From NCBI GenBank assembly GCA_016786465.1, contig JAEUWC010000019.1, positions 25,905 through 89,904 of the forward strand: a DNA stretch of 64,000 bases. Reading direction: 5' to 3'. Below the pieces are notes generated by a model that was given only the letters and a program-made list of their open reading frames with translations, did not search any database and was not told the origin of the DNA. Positions within the stretch are counted from its first letter, which is position 1; each line of letters opens with the position of its first letter. This DNA comes from Bdellovibrionales bacterium. Lineage in GTDB: Bacteria; Bdellovibrionota; UBA1018. This document shows, piece by piece, positions 48,742-57,473 of the stretch. Position numbers and translations under genes: made by a program.

Positions 48742-49913
48742 CCGCGACCCTACGGGCGTCTTTCTTGATCGCGCTTGCATGGACGGTTCTGGGTTGTTCG
48801 GGTCGAAATATTCATTCGGACCTGAAAGACGACACGGCGGTTATGGTTCGAAAGTGGACCTTGCAAACGAATCCTCATCACGAAGCGGGTGACCGAGGAA
48901 CCGAATATTCCAATGCCGTTTTGGCTGAAAATACACTGATTTTTGGAAGTCGCACGGAAGGTTTGGTAGCGGTTTACCCGAAGATCTTAGAAGTCCGCTG
49001 GACTTTGCCGATCAAAGGCGGAGTAGTGAGCCCCATCGTTTTGGATCGGGGATTGGCTTACTTTGGTGGCGGTGATGGGTTTGTTTATGCGGTCACCATT
49101 GAAAACGGCCGGGTTGCGTGGCGATACGATGTTCGAAATCCTCATATTTCAAAACCCACCGTCGAAGGCGGGCGCGTTTTCGTTACCACCAGTGAAGACA
49201 CGGTTTACGCATTTGATGCGGGCACGGGGAAATGGCTTTGGCATTACACGCGCAGGTCCGGTTCGTCGGCGACCATTCTGGGCGCTTCACAACCCACAGT
49301 CGATGGAAACGACGTCATCGTCGGCCTAAGCGACGGCTTTTTGGTGGCCTTGAATGTCGATGAAGGCACTTTGAAATGGGAACGAAAACTTCACGCGGGA
49401 ACGAAGTTCACCGACGTGGATTCGCATCCGGTGGTTTCGGACGGGATGATCTATGTTTCGTCTTATGATGGATCATTGTATGCGCTGAAGCGGCAGGGCG
49501 GGCAGGTGGTCTGGAAGTTTGATTCGGGCGCTTCGAAAGCAGTTTTGGTCGAAAAAAATCGGATCTATTTACCTTCGGTCGATGGCTGGGTTTACGCCTT
49601 GGATAAGGCAAGCGCGAAAGTCGTTTGGAAGTTTGAACTGGATCGTGGAACGCCGACGGATTTTGCGGCAACTGACAAACAGCTGATCTTTGGTTCTTCC
49701 CAGCGTTATTTGTACGTACTTGAAAAGGAAACAGGCAAGGCGACGTATCGCTTTGACGCCAGTTACGAAAGTGGGTTTGCATCGGCGCCCGCATTCGATC
49801 CGGCAACGGGTCGATCGTATTTTTTAAGCAGCGGTGGAAACCTGTACGCATTCCAGCTTCGGAAAAAGTCACCGTCAAAACTAGCGGATGGATTCCAGTT
49901 CTTCCGGTTTTAA
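48738..49913 (+). CDS. bamB: BamB-like PQQ-repeat β-propeller outer-membrane lipoprotein
   Basis: Lipobox TVLGCSG. Eight repeated ...G.VY..D..G...W.... blades (VYAVTIENGRVAWRY, VYAFDAGTGKWLWHY, LYALKRQGGQVVWKF, VYALDKASAKVVWKF). Confidence 0.65.
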   Translation: MTATLRASFLIALAWTVLGCSGRNIHSDLKDDTAVMVRKWTLQTNPHHEAGDRGTEYSNAVLAENTLIFGSRTEGLVAVYPKILEVRWTLPIKGGVVSPIVLDRGLAYFGGGDGFVYAVTIENGRVAWRYDVRNPHISKPTVEGGRVFVTTSEDTVYAFDAGTGKWLWHYTRRSGSSATILGASQPTVDGNDVIVGLSDGFLVALNVDEGTLKWERKLHAGTKFTDVDSHPVVSDGMIYVSSYDGSLYALKRQGGQVVWKFDSGASKAVLVEKNRIYLPSVDGWVYALDKASAKVVWKFELDRGTPTDFAATDKQLIFGSSQRYLYVLEKETGKATYRFDASYESGFASAPAFDPATGRSYFLSSGGNLYAFQLRKKSPSKLADGFQFFRF

Positions 49914-50634
49914 ACTTTTCTTAAAAAGGATTTGGTTTGCCTGGAGCGGAATCTGCTTTGGGACGTTGACCATTATTCTGACGTTTCCGGTGATTCTTTG
50001 TGTTTCGGTCTTTGGCGAGGTCACTGGGGGTAACCTGGGTTATGTCATCCTGCGTTTTTGGGGACGACTGCACGCGTTCTTATCTGGAATTTGGGTCACC
50101 GTGGAATGGACTGCGCCCAAGTACTTGGATGGCCCAGCGATCTACATTGCCAATCATGGTTCGTACCTGGACGTGATTTCCTTGGTGCCGCGGATGCCCG
50201 TGCCGTTTCGGCCATTAGGTAAAGTTGAACTGACGAAACTGCCAGTCTTTGGACGAATGTACCGCAGGGTCATGGTGGTCGTTGATCGCGAAAGCCTGGC
50301 CAGCCGAAAGGCCAGCGTTGAAAAGTTAAAAGAACTTTTGACGAAGCATCGAATTTCGATCTTGGTTTTCCCAGAAGGAACCATGAATCGAACTCCAGAT
50401 CTTTTGACGCCGTTTAAAGACGGTGCATTTCGAATCGCTGCAGATACGGGTATTCCGATCATTCCTGTGGGCGTGATCGGAGCGCGCGAAAACATGCCCC
50501 GAAGGCCATCGTTTACGATGTCGCCAGGACGTGTTCGGCTGCGTTTTGGAGCACCGATTCAAGTACAAGGGCGGGATCCTAAGGCGTTGAAAGATGAAGC
50601 TTATGAACGCCTGAAGGCACTGCTTAGCGTCTGA
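49888..50634 (+). CDS. plsC: 1-acyl-sn-glycerol-3-phosphate acyltransferase (PlsC family)
   Basis: HX4D motif NHGSYLDV, FPEGT motif, and an N-terminal membrane anchor. Confidence 0.8.
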   Translation: MDSSSSGFKLFLKRIWFAWSGICFGTLTIILTFPVILCVSVFGEVTGGNLGYVILRFWGRLHAFLSGIWVTVEWTAPKYLDGPAIYIANHGSYLDVISLVPRMPVPFRPLGKVELTKLPVFGRMYRRVMVVVDRESLASRKASVEKLKELLTKHRISILVFPEGTMNRTPDLLTPFKDGAFRIAADTGIPIIPVGVIGARENMPRRPSFTMSPGRVRLRFGAPIQVQGRDPKALKDEAYERLKALLSV

Positions 50635-51143: not shown

Positions 51144-52322
51144 GTGATCCCAGCACCGAAAGCAAGAATCCTTTGCGTTGGAACAGAATTGACGACTGGC
51201 CAGATTCAAAATCTGAACGCGTCGACCCTTTCACAATGGCTGACTGACCTTGGGGTCGAAGTCACTGGCCACGACGTCGTCCCTGATGACCGTAAACTGA
51301 TTCATCAAGCCCTGGTTCATTCTGAAACCGATAACGATATTTTGATCGTGACTGGCGGACTGGGCCCGACTACCGATGATTTCACGCGCGATGTAATCGC
51401 GGACTGGCTGGGCAAACCCTTAAAGTTCAGCGAAGGTTCGTGGAAGTGGATTCAAGAACGCTTGGGAAAAGCCGGGGTCGCCGTTGCCGAATCCAACCGT
51501 CAGCAGTGCTATTTTCCGGAAGGATCCGTCGAATTACATAATCCAGAAGGAACCGCGTATGGGTTTCAAGCTTGGAAGAATTCCAGACTTTGGGTCTGGG
51601 TTCTTCCCGGACCCCCTGTCGAAATTCGTGCAATCTGGAAAGGAAATCGAATCGGCGAAGTCCTTTCAAAAAAATATCCGCACGCAAAAAGGCCCAGTCT
51701 TTTTCGGTGGCAATGTTTGGGGAAAAGCGAATCCGCTTTGGGCGAAATTGTCGAATCCGCGTTGCAAGGCAGCGGCTACACGATCGGATATCGCGCGCAT
51801 CGCCCCTATATCGAAGTCAAAGTTTGGGTCGAACAACCTGAATCGGATTTACAGTGGGCGAAAAGAAAAGGCGCTTTGGAAGCGGCGATCCAGCCCTGGG
51901 TGATCTGTCGCGACGACGAAGATATAGCCGAAAAATTTGTGCAAAGCCGGTTGGGGTTAAAGAATCGAAATGTCCTGATTCATGATTCAGCAACTCAAGG
52001 TGTTCTTGCGCAGCGCTTGGGGTCTTTGAATTTAAAGGACACTGACTTCATGAATCGACTTCAAGTCATTTCTCGATTTTCCGGAAGCCAATCGGTTTCG
52101 ACGCCCGAAGGGTTTATCGAAGTTTGGAAGCTGGATTCTAAAACCGAAAAGGACGGAAGCATTCACTTTCGGTTGGAAGTTTTCTTTGGCCAGGCGACTC
52201 AGCCGGCTTGGGTCCATCAAGAAAAGCTTCCTTTCAAGGGCGAAGCTTATTTGGATCGCGCCCGCCGATTCATGGCCGAAAAGTTCCTTTTTTTAGCTTC
52301 CCAGGACCACCCTAAAGCGTGA
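51144..52322 (+). CDS. cinA: CinA-family (MoCF-binding domain) competence/damage-inducible protein
   Basis: ILCVGTELTTGQIQNLNASTLSQWLTDLGVEV...ILIVTGGLGPTTDDFTRDVIADWLGKPL (MoCF_BD fold). Confidence 0.7.
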   Translation: MIPAPKARILCVGTELTTGQIQNLNASTLSQWLTDLGVEVTGHDVVPDDRKLIHQALVHSETDNDILIVTGGLGPTTDDFTRDVIADWLGKPLKFSEGSWKWIQERLGKAGVAVAESNRQQCYFPEGSVELHNPEGTAYGFQAWKNSRLWVWVLPGPPVEIRAIWKGNRIGEVLSKKYPHAKRPSLFRWQCLGKSESALGEIVESALQGSGYTIGYRAHRPYIEVKVWVEQPESDLQWAKRKGALEAAIQPWVICRDDEDIAEKFVQSRLGLKNRNVLIHDSATQGVLAQRLGSLNLKDTDFMNRLQVISRFSGSQSVSTPEGFIEVWKLDSKTEKDGSIHFRLEVFFGQATQPAWVHQEKLPFKGEAYLDRARRFMAEKFLFLASQDHPKA

Positions 52323-54087
52323 ACGTTTGCGAATAGTCCCCTAGCCTGACTCGCATCCAGCGTTGTCCGGTCTTTGAATATTCTTCAGGGCTTGTGAAAT
52401 GGTAGCGGTAGCGGCTGGCTCGAACCATTCGGGGTGGCGCGGTTCCGAAAGGGTGGCGAATTCCCAATTTTTCTACGTTTGGACTTCCCTGCAGAATCTG
52501 GCGAATCAGTTCCTTCAACCAAGGCTGCTGTTCAAACTGACCTAAGGCTGCAAACCACATTTGCCAATCTAGTCTGGGTTGGTATGGGGTCACCCATCCA
52601 AAATTTTCTAAGACAGAATCCAAACGGCCTGGCTTGAAAGAAAAGCTGATTTCCTTCCAGACCTTTCCGTCTTCGCTGCCTTCCAAGATGATTTCGTCGC
52701 GGTTTCGGGTCATGACCGCAAAAAGACCAAAAGAATTTCCGATCCAAAAGTGGGTCCCCAAACGAGTCAGAAACGGAACCGTGCTTCCGGTTAAAGTCGA
52801 TAAGCCTAGAACGACGGTGATCCAGGCGGCGACCTTCGCTGTGCGATTTGAAATTCGATTTTCAGGAAGGCGTGCTTGGATTGCCTTTTGCGCGTCAAGC
52901 TTGAACATCTTTTCCAAAATCGTGTCATCCAACAAAAGCAGGCAAAGCAGCAAGGTCAGAAGATTGAAATACCCATAGCTTCCGGTGGCTAGAATCAAGA
53001 CTTGAAGACCACCGTGAATCCAAAAACCGAATACGCGAAACCGTCTAGGCATCAGTATCAAGAACGCCAAGGCCGTTTCCAAAATCAAAGTCATCGCTGT
53101 TGCGAATTGGTGGAAAAAAAGTGGAAGTTGGTAGATCCACCACGCTACGGGTGATGGCAGGGGTTGAGTTTCCCAATGAAATTTCAGCGCTTCCAGCGAC
53201 GTCCATGCCAAATCCCCGCTACCCATTTTGGAAAGCCCTGATCCCAGCATCAGACGAAAAAGAAGGAAACGAAGTGCGAATAAAACGGTTTCTGATCGCG
53301 TTTGAACGAAGAACGCAGAAAGAAAAAGGGTTTCCAAAAGAAGCGATTCCCACTGGTAGCCGGTAAACACCTGCCCCATATTGGTCAGGCTTAAGTAAAG
53401 AAAATAAACCGCCCAAATACACGGCGTCGCAAAACGTCTTTGAAAAATAGAAAGGCCCGCTAAAGCAGCAGCAAGGATCCCCTGCCCGACAATCCAGGCC
53501 GATCCAGTCGAAATCCAAGCGAAGGTCGGAAAATCCAAAATCAGACTGACCAACGAATCCATCGATCGCATCCCGCCTAAGCGATCCAGGCTGGGCTTCA
53601 GTGGCAGTATCCCTAAGTCACCGATCAAAGCTGGAAGTTGCAAGGCCAGTGTCAGTGCGGAAAAACCGGCAAGCCCCATCAGTCCGTAGGAAAAAACGCG
53701 GGCCACCCGCGAATACCTTGGCAGGCTGAGGTCGTTTCCGATCAGAATCCAGGCAACCCAAGAAAAGAACTTTCTGTTTTCGGAAACCTTTCGATAGGCC
53801 CACTCGGATACCGCTCGAAAAAATGGAAATCGGCGGTAGGCCCATAAGGGAAAACGGTATCGGGGTTGGGTCGCAAGTGCGCTGAAAACGGCTTCTGCCG
53901 CGCGGGCTAGAATCCGCCCCTGGGCATCCGTGAAATGGACGGCATTCTCGAAGTCGCCCCGTTGCCCCTTCCAGGACTGATACGGCATATACGCGACTTG
54001 ATCCCCGGTCATGTCCCTGAGCCTGACCACGCAGCTTCGACAAAAGCCGCAATCGCCATCAAAGATGAGCGTACCCAAACTTGCCAT
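52312..54087 (-). CDS. Fusion of a DCC-family (DUF393) thiol-disulfide oxidoreductase with a lipase-maturation-factor (LMF1/HTTM-like) polytopic membrane domain
   Basis: The N-terminus LIFDGDCGFCRSCV matches the DCC 'DG.C..C' motif. The membrane domain carries LMF hallmarks: YQWESLLLETLFLS, LKFHWETQPLPSP, GSYGYFNLLTLLLCLLLLDD. Start placed at the internal Met (MASLGTLIF) to avoid a 38-nt overlap with the divergent amidase gene. Confidence 0.6.
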   Translation of the reverse strand: MASLGTLIFDGDCGFCRSCVVRLRDMTGDQVAYMPYQSWKGQRGDFENAVHFTDAQGRILARAAEAVFSALATQPRYRFPLWAYRRFPFFRAVSEWAYRKVSENRKFFSWVAWILIGNDLSLPRYSRVARVFSYGLMGLAGFSALTLALQLPALIGDLGILPLKPSLDRLGGMRSMDSLVSLILDFPTFAWISTGSAWIVGQGILAAALAGLSIFQRRFATPCIWAVYFLYLSLTNMGQVFTGYQWESLLLETLFLSAFFVQTRSETVLFALRFLLFRLMLGSGLSKMGSGDLAWTSLEALKFHWETQPLPSPVAWWIYQLPLFFHQFATAMTLILETALAFLILMPRRFRVFGFWIHGGLQVLILATGSYGYFNLLTLLLCLLLLDDTILEKMFKLDAQKAIQARLPENRISNRTAKVAAWITVVLGLSTLTGSTVPFLTRLGTHFWIGNSFGLFAVMTRNRDEIILEGSEDGKVWKEISFSFKPGRLDSVLENFGWVTPYQPRLDWQMWFAALGQFEQQPWLKELIRQILQGSPNVEKLGIRHPFGTAPPRMVRASRYRYHFTSPEEYSKTGQRWMRVRLGDYSQTFTL

Positions 54088-54127
54088 ATGACTTGAGTGT
54101 ACACGTATGCTAGCCAGCTGCGCAGGC

Positions 54128-55630
54128 ATGAAGTTCTGCGTCAAAAAGATTATTCTATTATTACTGGTACTTGGAGGAATGGAATGGGGGTCCCTTCAAG
54201 CGGTTTTTGCCAACGAAGACCCCATTGACCTGCCTGACTTGCCCTCTTCCTCTTCTTCTTCTTCTTCAGATCTGGTCATTTTTGAATCGGCTCAATACCA
54301 AAGTGCCGTTGCGTCCACACTTCGATCAGATTCTGAAATCTTTGCCTTGATCGATTCCGCGTTTCGTCGATTGGGAATGCCCATTCCAAGTCCGGCAAAA
54401 GCCACCGACGTTTCCCCCTTCTTGGGTTCGCCTAGTGCGACGGAACTGAAAACGGTACTTCCCGTTTTTCTTTTAGGAAACGCATTTCGAAATCAGCGTT
54501 TTGTCGCTTGGGATCAGGCATGGGTTCAAAGTTATTCTGATGGAATGGGGCGAACGGCCGAATACGACTTTCCGATCAACACTTCGGCGGATCCCACTTT
54601 TGCCCGCGAATCCAGAATCGCATCGCTGGTCGCTTCGCGTCCTTTGACGCTTCCGTTGGCAGGTTTTCGAATTGCGATCGATCCCGGGCATATGGGGGGC
54701 GATTCTTGGGACAAGATCACCGGAAAGTTCATCAAGGATGCGGCAACCGGTGTGAAACTGAGCGAAGGAGTCATGGCGCTTCAGACTTCCCTTCTTTTGC
54801 AAAAGGAATTTGAAGCATTGGGCGCAACTGTTCAGCTGACCCACGACCAGTTTGATGCCGTAACCCCCGTGAAGCTTGAGCACTTAGACTTGAAAGAATA
54901 CGGGTTCAAGGAACTTCGAAATTCGCAGGCCGATTCGTGGATTGGGGCATTGGCGCAAAAGGCGGGAAGCGAAAAAGAATTGGCCGACCTGATTTCAAAA
55001 TCGGCTCAGTACAAAAGATTCTTTTCTGAAATCATGCGGGGCACCTATCACACTCAGCGCCTGGACCTTCACGCTAGAAACGAAAAGATTCTGGCATTCG
55101 TTCCGGACCTAACCTTGGTCATTCATTATGACGTCGCGGTGACGGCAGCTAACCCCAATGGTCCCAATCGCAAAGGCAAACAAGGTGTAAAGGCCTACAT
55201 TCCCGGCGCCTTTTCTGAATCAGAAATTTCCACACCTGAACGTCGCGCACATTTTCTTCAGGCGCTTTCTAGAACTTCGTACTTTTCTGAAAATTTAAGG
55301 TTCGCAAAGCACCTGACGACTTCCATCGCGTCGAAATTGAAAATCCCTTTTGACTTGGCGACTACGGGGCTTGCGACTTCGCATGGGTCGGGCGTTCAGT
55401 CACGCAACCTGACTTTGACCCATCATATGTCACAGACGGTCGGTGCTTTTTTGGAATGCGCCTATTACAACACGACGGATTTTGATCGCTTTGCCAAGGC
55501 GGACTATACGCTTTCAATTGGCGGTAGGAAGACGACCTATTCCAAGCGCCTAGTTGAAGTCGTTCAGGCGATTCGCGACGGCGTGTTGAATTACGTTGGA
55601 TCTTTTTCGGGACCTAGTTTAGTCAAATAG
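54128..55630 (+). CDS. Secreted N-acetylmuramoyl-L-alanine amidase-like (Amidase_3) protein with a poly-Ser tract
   Basis: Signal peptide MKFCVKKIILLLLVLGG. IAIDPGHMGGDSW...EGVMALQTSLLLQKEFEALGATVQLTHD resembles the Amidase_3 Zn-binding start (IDAGHGG...E...G..V.LTR). Eight consecutive Ser. Confidence 0.5.
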   Translation: MKFCVKKIILLLLVLGGMEWGSLQAVFANEDPIDLPDLPSSSSSSSSDLVIFESAQYQSAVASTLRSDSEIFALIDSAFRRLGMPIPSPAKATDVSPFLGSPSATELKTVLPVFLLGNAFRNQRFVAWDQAWVQSYSDGMGRTAEYDFPINTSADPTFARESRIASLVASRPLTLPLAGFRIAIDPGHMGGDSWDKITGKFIKDAATGVKLSEGVMALQTSLLLQKEFEALGATVQLTHDQFDAVTPVKLEHLDLKEYGFKELRNSQADSWIGALAQKAGSEKELADLISKSAQYKRFFSEIMRGTYHTQRLDLHARNEKILAFVPDLTLVIHYDVAVTAANPNGPNRKGKQGVKAYIPGAFSESEISTPERRAHFLQALSRTSYFSENLRFAKHLTTSIASKLKIPFDLATTGLATSHGSGVQSRNLTLTHHMSQTVGAFLECAYYNTTDFDRFAKADYTLSIGGRKTTYSKRLVEVVQAIRDGVLNYVGSFSGPSLVK

Positions 55631-55631
55631 G

Positions 55632-56153
55632 ATGCAACTGATTCTGCTGGTATTGGCCGCCCTTTGGGCACCTGACTGCGTCCACGCTGAAGAATCCGGA
55701 CTAACCCGAAAAAGCCCGGACTGGATGGTTCGCTACGGCGTAGTTTCAGACGAAGACAAACTATCGGCTTGGCCAGGAACAAAGCTTTTTTCGGTGACCC
55801 GTCGAAGCGATTACAAGTGGCAAGCTTGGCAGGTTGAATTGGGCGGTATTTTTGAAAACCGGGCTGGAATGAAGGGCCAGGGCTTTATCAGCTTTGCCGC
55901 AGGGATTGAAACCCAGACCCTTCCCTTGCGTTTTTTCTATCTTCCGGGCGTAGCGCTGGTTTCGGCAACCGACCCCAAACTTTCTAGCTTTTGGCAGTTT
56001 AGCCATGATCTGGGCTTTTTCTGGCGCGACCATCGCGGAATTGCCATCGGAATGCAGTACCGCCACTTCAGCAATGCGGGACTTCACCTACCCAACGGTG
56101 GGAAGAACTTTTTGCAGCTTAGTCTTTCCGTTCCTGCTTCTGAACTTTTTTGA
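55632..56153 (+). CDS. pagL: PagL-like lipid A 3-O-deacylase (small 8-strand outer-membrane β-barrel)
   Basis: 173 aa with signal peptide. The conserved catalytic block HFSNAGL (His...Ser of the PagL HxSNG motif) lies near the C-terminus. Ends in a β-barrel strand. Confidence 0.55.
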   Translation: MQLILLVLAALWAPDCVHAEESGLTRKSPDWMVRYGVVSDEDKLSAWPGTKLFSVTRRSDYKWQAWQVELGGIFENRAGMKGQGFISFAAGIETQTLPLRFFYLPGVALVSATDPKLSSFWQFSHDLGFFWRDHRGIAIGMQYRHFSNAGLHLPNGGKNFLQLSLSVPASELF

Positions 56154-56964
56154 TTTCGTTCATCAAGCTTCGGATTCTTGAAGGATCCAAGGGTGCCCCA
56201 GCGCGGCCGTTTCTTCGAAGCGTTGATCCCACGATCAGTCCGTCAGAATTTTCTACCATCCACGGTAGGGTTTCGATCGTCGTCCCGCTTCCAATCCAAA
56301 GTGGAATTTCGTGCTTAGATGCCGCTTCATAGGCCTTCTTCAAAAAACCCCGTTCCATCGCCCGTCCCGTGGTGGGTCCGGTGACGATGACTCCGTCGGC
56401 ATGCGCACGAAGCCCTACTTCTTCAACCGCAAGATCCACTTCTGTGACTGAAAGGGTGCGCGCGTGCTTGACCAAAATGTCGGCTAAAATTCGGACATCG
56501 GGACAAAATTGATTTCGGTATCGAATCCATTCCGCGGCGCGACCCTGAATCATTCCCTGGTCCGTGGCCGCAACACCCGAAAGGACGTTGACACGAATGA
56601 AACTTGCACCGCTGGTCGCTGCAATTGCCAAGGCAGATCGGCAATCATTTCTAAGGACGTTGATCCCAACTGGAATTTTTACGGCGCGAACGACTTCGCG
56701 CGCGATCTGCGCCATCGATGCCACGGTTTCAGCAGGAACCGTTTCAGGAAAAAACGGAGCGTCACCAAAATTTTCAAGGATCAGTCCCGAAAAGCCGGCG
56801 GCTTCCAGGGTCTTGGCTTCAGTGGTGGCGGTTTTGACGATGGAATCCAAAAGTCGGTTGGCGTTTTTGCCTGTCGCCCCCGGTGACCCCGGAAGCGCCG
56901 CTAAGTGAATCACACAGATCCATCGGGGTAACTTTTTCACTTTTTGCCCCGGATGCGGTCCCAA
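56119..56964 (-). CDS. BtpA/SgcQ-family TIM-barrel protein
   Basis: N-terminal ...PRWICVIHLAALPGSPGATG matches the BtpA conserved start. About 280 aa. Confidence 0.55.
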   Translation of the reverse strand: MGPHPGQKVKKLPRWICVIHLAALPGSPGATGKNANRLLDSIVKTATTEAKTLEAAGFSGLILENFGDAPFFPETVPAETVASMAQIAREVVRAVKIPVGINVLRNDCRSALAIAATSGASFIRVNVLSGVAATDQGMIQGRAAEWIRYRNQFCPDVRILADILVKHARTLSVTEVDLAVEEVGLRAHADGVIVTGPTTGRAMERGFLKKAYEAASKHEIPLWIGSGTTIETLPWMVENSDGLIVGSTLRRNGRAGAPLDPSRIRSLMNEIKKVQKQERKD

Positions 56965-57473
56965 AACCCCGGAGCCGCTTTCTTTGCGTCGCTTCCCAAG
57001 ACTTGAGCTGCTTCTTCGGCGCTGATTTTTCCTGCGGCCAGTGCTTCTTGAACGATTTTCTTAGCTTCGGCTTCATCGAGGTCGCCAGAAGTCGCCGTTG
57101 TCGCAGACGCGCCAACACCTTGGGAAGCCATAAATCCGGCTGCCATCTGCTTCAATTCCGGGGGCAGGAATCTTTCAAATTCCTGGGCTTCACGAGAAAC
57201 GTCTTTTCCAGCCATTGCCTTTTGCATCAGCGACTGAAGCTTTTGAAGCTGACCGCGCGGAAGGCGCTGCAGTGCGCCCATCATTTGGGTCATCATCGCC
57301 GGGTCCATCTTCGAGGGGTCAAAGCCACCCGCTGGTACGCCTGGAATACTGGAATTTGAAGTCTGGGCCGCAGCTGCCGGAGTCGTCAAAACAGGAGGAG
57401 CATCAATTCCGTGGCAACGTTTGTACTTTTTTCCGCTGCCGCAATGGCAGGGTTCGTTTCTTTTTAGTTCCAT
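56937..57473 (-). CDS. SEC-C metal-binding-motif protein (N-terminal CHCGSGKKYKRCHG)
   Basis: The Cys-x-Cys...Cys-His zinc knuckle is identical in pattern to the SecA C-terminal / YecA SEC-C motif. The rest is Ala/Gln/Met-rich. Overlaps the BtpA start by 28 nt. Confidence 0.55.
   Translation of the reverse strand: MELKRNEPCHCGSGKKYKRCHGIDAPPVLTTPAAAAQTSNSSIPGVPAGGFDPSKMDPAMMTQMMGALQRLPRGQLQKLQSLMQKAMAGKDVSREAQEFERFLPPELKQMAAGFMASQGVGASATTATSGDLDEAEAKKIVQEALAAGKISAEEAAQVLGSDAKKAAPGFWDRIRGKK

Follow-up and report, generated by a model that had tools for sequence, protein, structure and literature searches.

What might a small thiol-redox domain be doing at the head of a membrane protein related to the lipase maturation factor LMF1? 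This question is raised by a gene on the minus strand (positions 52312–54087) of a 64,000-nucleotide stretch of DNA, here called the window, from a Bdellovibrionales bacterium (assembly GCA_016786465.1, contig JAEUWC010000019.1, positions 25,905 to 89,904). The gene is a complete coding sequence with an ATG start, encoding 591 residues plus a stop codon, and its product is a fusion of DCC1-like, LMF1 and LMF1_C domains. A longer version starting from a TTG at 54144 is possible; the NCBI protein that is 100% identical (P0001, from a Bdellovibrionales metagenome-assembled genome, named "lipase maturation factor family protein") also has 591 residues.

The preliminary description, made from the letters of the window, had called the product a DCC thiol-disulfide oxidoreductase fused to an LMF1-like membrane domain. 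All three Pfam profiles concerned scored above their curated cut-offs. The DCC1-like (DUF393) profile PF04134 matched residues 7–107 (53767–54069) with 37 bits against a cut-off of 27.8 (E 9e-9), spanning profile positions 1–109 of 113. The LMF1 core profile PF06762 matched residues 243–391 (52915–53361; 147.8 bits, E 4e-43), and the LMF1_C profile PF25179 followed in the expected order at residues 450–585 (52333–52740; 148 bits, E 2e-43); NCBIfam has no model for the protein. The motif blocks that had been quoted are all present in the translation, namely YQWESLLLE (residues 244–252), HWETQPLP (304–311) and GSYGYFNLLTLLLCLLLLDD (369–388). The DxxCxxC motif reads DGDCGFC at residues 10–16, in which D10 is followed by the redox motif CGFC with C13 and C16 (residues 13–16, 54040–54051, checked by translation). 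The fusion of DCC and LMF is thus confirmed, with a match far beyond chance.

The fusion is the predominant bacterial architecture of the LMF family, and public databases already carry annotations of it. Among the 120 best homologues, examined for Pfam architecture, 118 carry all three domains, and they come from Acidobacteriota, Verrucomicrobiota, Elusimicrobia, Omnitrophica and other groups. The closest relative, P0002, is among the two exceptions; it comes from a syntenic locus, where the DCC domain is intact but precedes a wrongly called start. Its gene call (L001:5866-6000) begins about 45 codons too late and thereby loses the DCC CxxC, with MTTGGTLIWDGDCDFC lying upstream; mis-calls of this kind make LMF proteins without DCC look more numerous in databases than they are. 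With one genome taken per GTDB species, the fusion was found in at least 600 species-level genomes from many phyla; the best 80 loci alone cover at least 10 phyla, and in all but one of them the match begins within query residues 1–8. When the LMF part alone (residues 118–591) was used as the query, 6007 clusters at 50% identity were recovered at E≤1e-3 and 1527 at E≤1e-30. By gene calls, the top 150 LMF representatives include 67 DCC-fused and 70 DCC-less proteins. Read directly from DNA, 59 of the 74 metagenome loci nearest to a DCC-less query are fused and about 10 are truly unfused. No separate DCC open reading frame was found within 5 kb in any of the 18 metagenome loci without the standard motif, nor a separate DCC gene within 5 kb of the unfused LMF genes. 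How often DCC and LMF are fused or adjacent had been left by the preliminary description to a survey, and the answer is that fusion is common in bacteria and adjacency was not found: the domain is part of the LMF protein or missing, and never stands as a gene of its own alongside. Thousands of copies of the protein and its architecture are already deposited under pipeline-given names.

The LMF part and vertebrate LMF1 are genuinely related at the level of orthologues. From residue 120 to 591, that is from the first transmembrane (TM) helix to the C-terminus, the two are colinear with about 30% identity and 60 invariant columns. Invariant residues in or near the membrane in both bacterial and vertebrate LMF proteins are Q150, W246, E252, K287, D292, W295, H304, T307, Q308, N375 and D388, and after TM9 a YGxF..M motif and RLDW..WFAA are likewise invariant. 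Eukaryotic LMF1 and LMF2 (TMEM112) thus share with the bacterial protein the domain order, the topology with the N-terminus inside and the C-terminus outside, and the K, E, H, D, N, Q and W residues. In contrast, none of the 120 vertebrate LMF1 proteins among the matches listed has a DCC domain.

On which side of the membrane does the CxxC lie? The full-length AlphaFold2 (AF2) model is confident (predicted local distance difference test, pLDDT, 89.2; predicted template modelling score, pTM, 0.90) and shows an N-terminal alpha/beta domain, nine long hydrophobic helices and a beta-rich C-terminal domain. The TM domain extends over residues 126–433 (52789–53712), with helices at residues 126–155, 196–215, 217–237, 245–263, 266–288, 323–345, 348–367, 372–395 and 411–433, so that the LMF1 core profile covers TM4 to TM8 and with them the invariant polar residues. 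No signal peptide was found in the protein. Across 59 homologues, lysine and arginine are enriched in the predicted cytoplasmic segments (2.1 before TM1, 2.2 between TM4 and TM5, 3.0 between TM6 and TM7 and 4.4 between TM8 and TM9) and amount to 0 to 1.1 in the short predicted periplasmic loops. The missing signal peptide and this positive-inside pattern together indicate an N-in, C-out topology, which predicts a cytoplasmic DCC domain and a periplasmic LMF1_C; the layout of the fold described below agrees with it. In human LMF1, too, the N-terminus is cytosolic and the C-terminus lumenal.

This topology bears directly on the suggestion, made in the preliminary description, that the protein belongs to an envelope oxidative-folding or quinone-linked system distinct from DsbA/DsbB and VKOR. 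In its oxidative form, the protein would make periplasmic disulfides and pass the electrons to quinone, in parallel to DsbB or VKOR, and a CxxC domain fused to a polytopic membrane protein with a quinone-enzyme-like fold is what such a module might look like. Like VKOR/DsbB and DsbD/CcdA, the DCC-LMF protein couples a CxxC module to a membrane domain, an arrangement by which those systems move redox equivalents between compartments or to quinone. It differs from them in having another fold, unlike the four-helix DsbB/VKOR bundle, and in lacking membrane Cys pairs and a periplasmic CxxC, its own CxxC sitting in a soluble domain that is predicted to face the cytoplasm. Moreover, mammalian LMF1 makes the endoplasmic reticulum (ER) more reducing, not more oxidising: its loss renders the ER more oxidising and its overexpression more reducing, and it is reported to supply the ER with reducing equivalents and to interact with cytosolic thioredoxin (PMC11564982; PMC11526315; PMC7197872). 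LMF1 has been proposed as a candidate membrane route for electrons of the cytosolic thioredoxin system into the ER (PMC7197872), a role that fits a cytoplasmic CxxC domain in cis as the first step of electron transfer. With its CxxC predicted in the cytoplasm and no periplasmic Cys pairs, an oxidative-folding module is very improbable, while a reductive or quinone-linked role is still plausible. The same division applies to the claim that the fusion ties the LMF fold to redox chemistry. The strong conservation of the CxxC, present in 76/76 species loci that include the N-terminus and in 56–57 of 57 homologue sequences, fits a functional coupling, and it is the oxidative direction that is disfavoured.

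The distribution of cysteines narrows the possibilities further. In the whole protein only C13, C16 and C382 are conserved (57–59 homologues; 78 loci). C382 (52942–52944, in a CLLLLDD segment that starts at 52944) is the only conserved Cys outside the DCC domain. Its place is in TM8, five residues ahead of D387-D388, an invariant pair that sits at the cytoplasmic end of this helix; C382 is kept in 57 of 59 homologues and 74 of 78 loci. No Cys pairs are conserved in the TM helices or periplasmic loops, and no Cys is conserved among the aligned homologues in the periplasmic C-terminal domain. A thiol-relay reductant shuttle resembling DsbD/CcdA, in which electrons pass from the reduced DCC domain to C382 and on to periplasmic clients with no quinone involved, perhaps through an intermolecular C382-C382' disulfide in a dimer, would suit the predicted cytoplasmic CxxC and the conservation of C382. 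It would also suit vertebrate LMF1, which has a Ser at the position of C382 but a Cys one turn further along that helix, three residues on. Such a relay would nevertheless have to work with one conserved membrane Cys and none in the periplasm, and the lumenal cysteines of vertebrate LMF1 (GDRCW, LTC, FKCKPG...RRPC) are absent from the bacterial proteins. The invariant residues of the family are K, E, H, D, N, Q and W rather than Cys. In a dedicated test, C382 did not track the presence of DCC, being found in 75% of DCC-fused and 73% of DCC-less homologues. The cysteine pattern thus argues against a classical multi-cysteine relay as well as against periplasmic disulfide catalysis, and we consider a thiol relay unlikely.

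The DCC domain itself may belong to the thioredoxin superfamily. Its predicted secondary structure follows the order beta-alpha-beta...beta-beta-alpha, and the AF2 model of the isolated domain (pLDDT about 90) shows a thioredoxin-type beta-alpha-beta order, with a strand at residues 5–9, then the CxxC at the N-terminus of helix 1, and this helix at residues 14–27 (14–30 in the full-length model). The Foldseek matches of this model were almost without exception members of the thioredoxin superfamily, with glutathione S-transferase N-terminal domains, glutaredoxins and thioredoxin-like proteins at the top, none of them significant (best E 0.15). We know of no solved DCC structure. Arabidopsis DCC1 has been termed a functional thioredoxin in a review (PMC6603150). 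Some fused homologues (L118, L122 and L156) carry the variant motifs YDADCxFC or YDRDCAFC instead of DGDC, indicating that the Gly of the DGxCxxC signature is not strictly required.

If neither a periplasmic disulfide catalyst nor a cysteine relay fits well, what kind of membrane domain does the DCC serve? When the AF2 model was compared with the PDB by Foldseek, 14 entries of human vitamin K-dependent gamma-carboxylase (GGCX) were returned with E-values from 1e-5 to 1e-3 and a probability of 1.0 over about 490 columns, and apart from GGCX nothing was below E 0.3. The preliminary description had named HTTM beside LMF1 as a possible assignment, and this lead gained its support from structure, GGCX being the sole significant PDB match. 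By cryo-EM, GGCX has nine TM helices and a lumenal domain, with K218 and W223 in TM5, the D263 region in TM6 and a Cap formed by the TM5-TM6 loop (PMC12589487). The AF2 model likewise combines a nine-TM domain with a following extracytoplasmic domain, and LMF1_C falls within the structurally aligned span, in the place equivalent to that of the GGCX lumenal domain. The best local hhalign alignments, sub-significant as they are, proved reproducible and colinear, pairing LMF residues 266–347 with GGCX 197–273 and LMF 513–531 with GGCX 491–509. They match G284 with G215, K287 with K218, W295 with W223, H304-W305 with H235-W236, P309 with P240 and E337 with D263. The helix numbers agree, K287 and K218 being in TM5 and E337 and D263 in TM6. 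By eye, two further stretches may correspond: the start of TM4 (GGCX W157..G165 and LMF W246..G254) and the segment after TM9 (Y395-G396..M401 and Y453-G454..M459).

GGCX uses K218 as the base for deprotonating vitamin K hydroquinone, with help from D263, and the D263E variant is still active (PMC13486548). The candidate counterparts in the LMF family are strongly conserved. K287 (53227–53229), at the periplasmic end of TM5, is invariant in 78/78 loci and 137/137 representatives, and position 337 (53077–53079) is E in 130 and Q in 7 of the 137 representatives. Because transmembrane Cys pairs are absent and the fold is GGCX-like with a conserved Lys-acid pair, a quinone-centred mechanism is favoured over a cysteine relay. 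We therefore hypothesize, tentatively but as a serious possibility, that the DCC-LMF protein is a self-contained redox enzyme of the inner membrane, akin to GGCX, which uses quinol at a site facing the periplasm and has a dithiol donor of its own in the cytoplasm. Starting from a computed fold, topology and conservation pattern, we infer its quinone use, electron flow and substrate as follows. The LMF core would keep a GGCX-type active site at the periplasmic face, with K287 as the base corresponding to K218, E337 in the place of D263, and the conserved H-W...P loop as a putative counterpart of the GGCX Cap. A membrane quinol (menaquinol or ubiquinol) would be bound there and drive chemistry on a putative periplasmic or membrane substrate. 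The fused DCC domain would act as an in-cis dithiol donor that returns the oxidized cofactor, quinone or quinone epoxide, to its reduced state, the service that VKOR performs for GGCX, and would thus couple cytoplasmic reducing power to the periplasm-facing site. Vertebrates lack the fusion, and there the part of DCC would fall to free thioredoxin in the cytosol.

Several observations weigh against this reading. The Foldseek TM-scores to GGCX are just 0.37–0.40. The structural likeness is accompanied by no significant sequence similarity: single-sequence and profile searches of the PDB returned nothing relevant and no GGCX. No HTTM Pfam match was found in the protein, and no cross-match between the LMF and HTTM (PF05090) Pfam families appeared at E≤10 in either direction. 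Alignment of LMF to GGCX with hhalign, whether with a single GGCX sequence or profile against profile, stayed at E 0.1–0.6, and global hhalign and profile Needleman-Wunsch runs gave trivial alignments. The assignment of K287 to K218 rests on such sub-threshold alignments together with the matching helix numbers, and is to be read as a candidate equivalence. Two other GGCX residues fare less well, the equivalent of N290 being ambiguous (position 370 is Ser in the DCC-LMF protein) and the Glu-pocket residue H160 being replaced by Leu in LMF; gamma-carboxylation of glutamate itself is therefore not expected. LMF also has invariant residues of its own, Q245, E252, N375 and D387-D388, in which it is unlike GGCX. 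Furthermore, the DCC CxxC and the proposed active site are predicted on opposite faces of the membrane. Many close homologues are DCC-less, roughly half by gene calls and about 10/74 when read from DNA, and since the unfused loci have no separate DCC gene within 5 kb, DCC is dispensable for the core function. To our knowledge, quinone binding, a substrate or an activity has been demonstrated for no LMF protein, and none has a known dependence on vitamin K.

A partnership of the same kind has been described for an HTTM membrane domain. A preprint reports a bacterial protein with an HTTM domain followed by a DCC1-like domain, with a predicted GGCX-like complex in which menaquinol lies near a conserved Lys (bioRxiv 10.64898/2026.08.19.745780). 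Such HTTM-DCC1-like proteins (for instance Melghirimyces A0A1G6IBF2, with a DUF5819 partner) resemble the DCC-LMF protein in joining DCC to a GGCX-like membrane domain. They differ in the reversed order of the two domains, in having a genuine HTTM domain and in the DUF5819 gene conserved beside them, whereas the DCC-LMF gene has no conserved neighbour. Taken together, the two architectures indicate that DCC may have been joined independently to two branches of the GGCX/HTTM membrane-enzyme superfamily, which suggests a recurrent partnership of DCC with membrane enzymes.

A wider form of the hypothesis, which we hold to be doubtful but worth stating, is that the whole LMF family including human LMF1 is a diverged branch of GGCX/HTTM, composed of quinone-dependent enzymes with a quinol-activating Lys-acid pair and not of passive chaperones, the bacterial DCC being a built-in VKOR equivalent that recycles quinone from cytoplasmic thiols. 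[quoted passage not shown] LMF1 is required for the maturation of lipoprotein lipase, and the bacterial proteins offer a simple single-gene model. A cytoplasmic CxxC fused to the LMF core across many phyla fits an LMF fold served by a cytosolic dithiol donor, and the GGCX-like fold with its conserved Lys-acid pair yields a concrete hypothesis of a quinone-dependent active site that can be tested by mutation. The searchable literature yielded no account of the DCC-LMF fusion, of a relationship between LMF and GGCX, or of the quinone-site hypothesis. The value of this locus thus lies in a supported hypothesis rather than in the rarity of the gene.

Does the protein work with a dedicated partner or client? 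The DCC-LMF gene is monocistronic, and no conserved partner gene was present in six annotated neighbourhoods. When all open reading frames within 5 kb were clustered over 80 genome loci and 80 metagenome loci, the largest non-self cluster covered 7/80 loci in either set and revealed no partner. The protein therefore appears self-contained, or its partners are encoded elsewhere; with no conserved neighbour, the fusion is plausibly self-sufficient. These data also bear on a non-catalytic function, in which LMF would be a membrane chaperone or scaffold for exported proteins and DCC a redox sensor, regulator or structural module. Eukaryotic LMF1 has been described as a lipase chaperone (PMC11526315), DCC is missing from many homologues, and one DCC-less homologue (P0375) has a GDSL lipase gene just downstream and an FKBP gene close by. 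On the other side, a set of intramembrane polar residues is invariant from bacteria to vertebrates and the fold matches that of an enzyme, features that point to ligand binding or catalysis, and no client gene is conserved nearby in the 80 + 80 loci. We regard this explanation as distinctly unlikely, and the quinol-using enzyme remains the reading we prefer.

In the P0375 locus (L085:5001-7859), 17 nt separate the LMF gene from the start of the GDSL lipase/esterase gene, which is followed by the FKBP prolyl isomerase gene, with an alpha/beta hydrolase gene nearby, which makes this single locus a possible bacterial link between LMF and lipases. In two unrelated loci (L004:9305-11989 and the P0051 locus), a gene with FAD_binding_4 and FAD-oxidase_C domains lies 2.4–5 kb downstream of DCC-LMF, and in L004 it adjoins a fatty-acid desaturase gene. 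This gene did not emerge as a conserved cluster, and its proximity may be coincidence.

A promoter and terminator scan gave nothing informative. Downstream in the window, a cinA-like gene is convergent with the DCC-LMF gene and overlaps it by 11 nt. The upstream neighbour (54107–55630, plus strand) is divergent. Its Amidase_3-like product carries eight consecutive serines behind a segment resembling a signal peptide, and translation probably begins at an internal MKFCVKK, which would leave a few tens of bases between the divergent genes. The region is flanked by genes for a PlsC-type acyltransferase (49888–50634, plus strand) and a PagL-like lipid A 3-O-deacylase (55632–56153, plus strand), an arrangement that is syntenic in the closest relative (L001) and not kept elsewhere. 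Farther along, a 178-residue open reading frame on the minus strand (56937–57473) begins with a SEC-C-type metal-binding motif (CHCGSGKKYKRCHG) and continues into Ala/Gln-rich low-complexity sequence.

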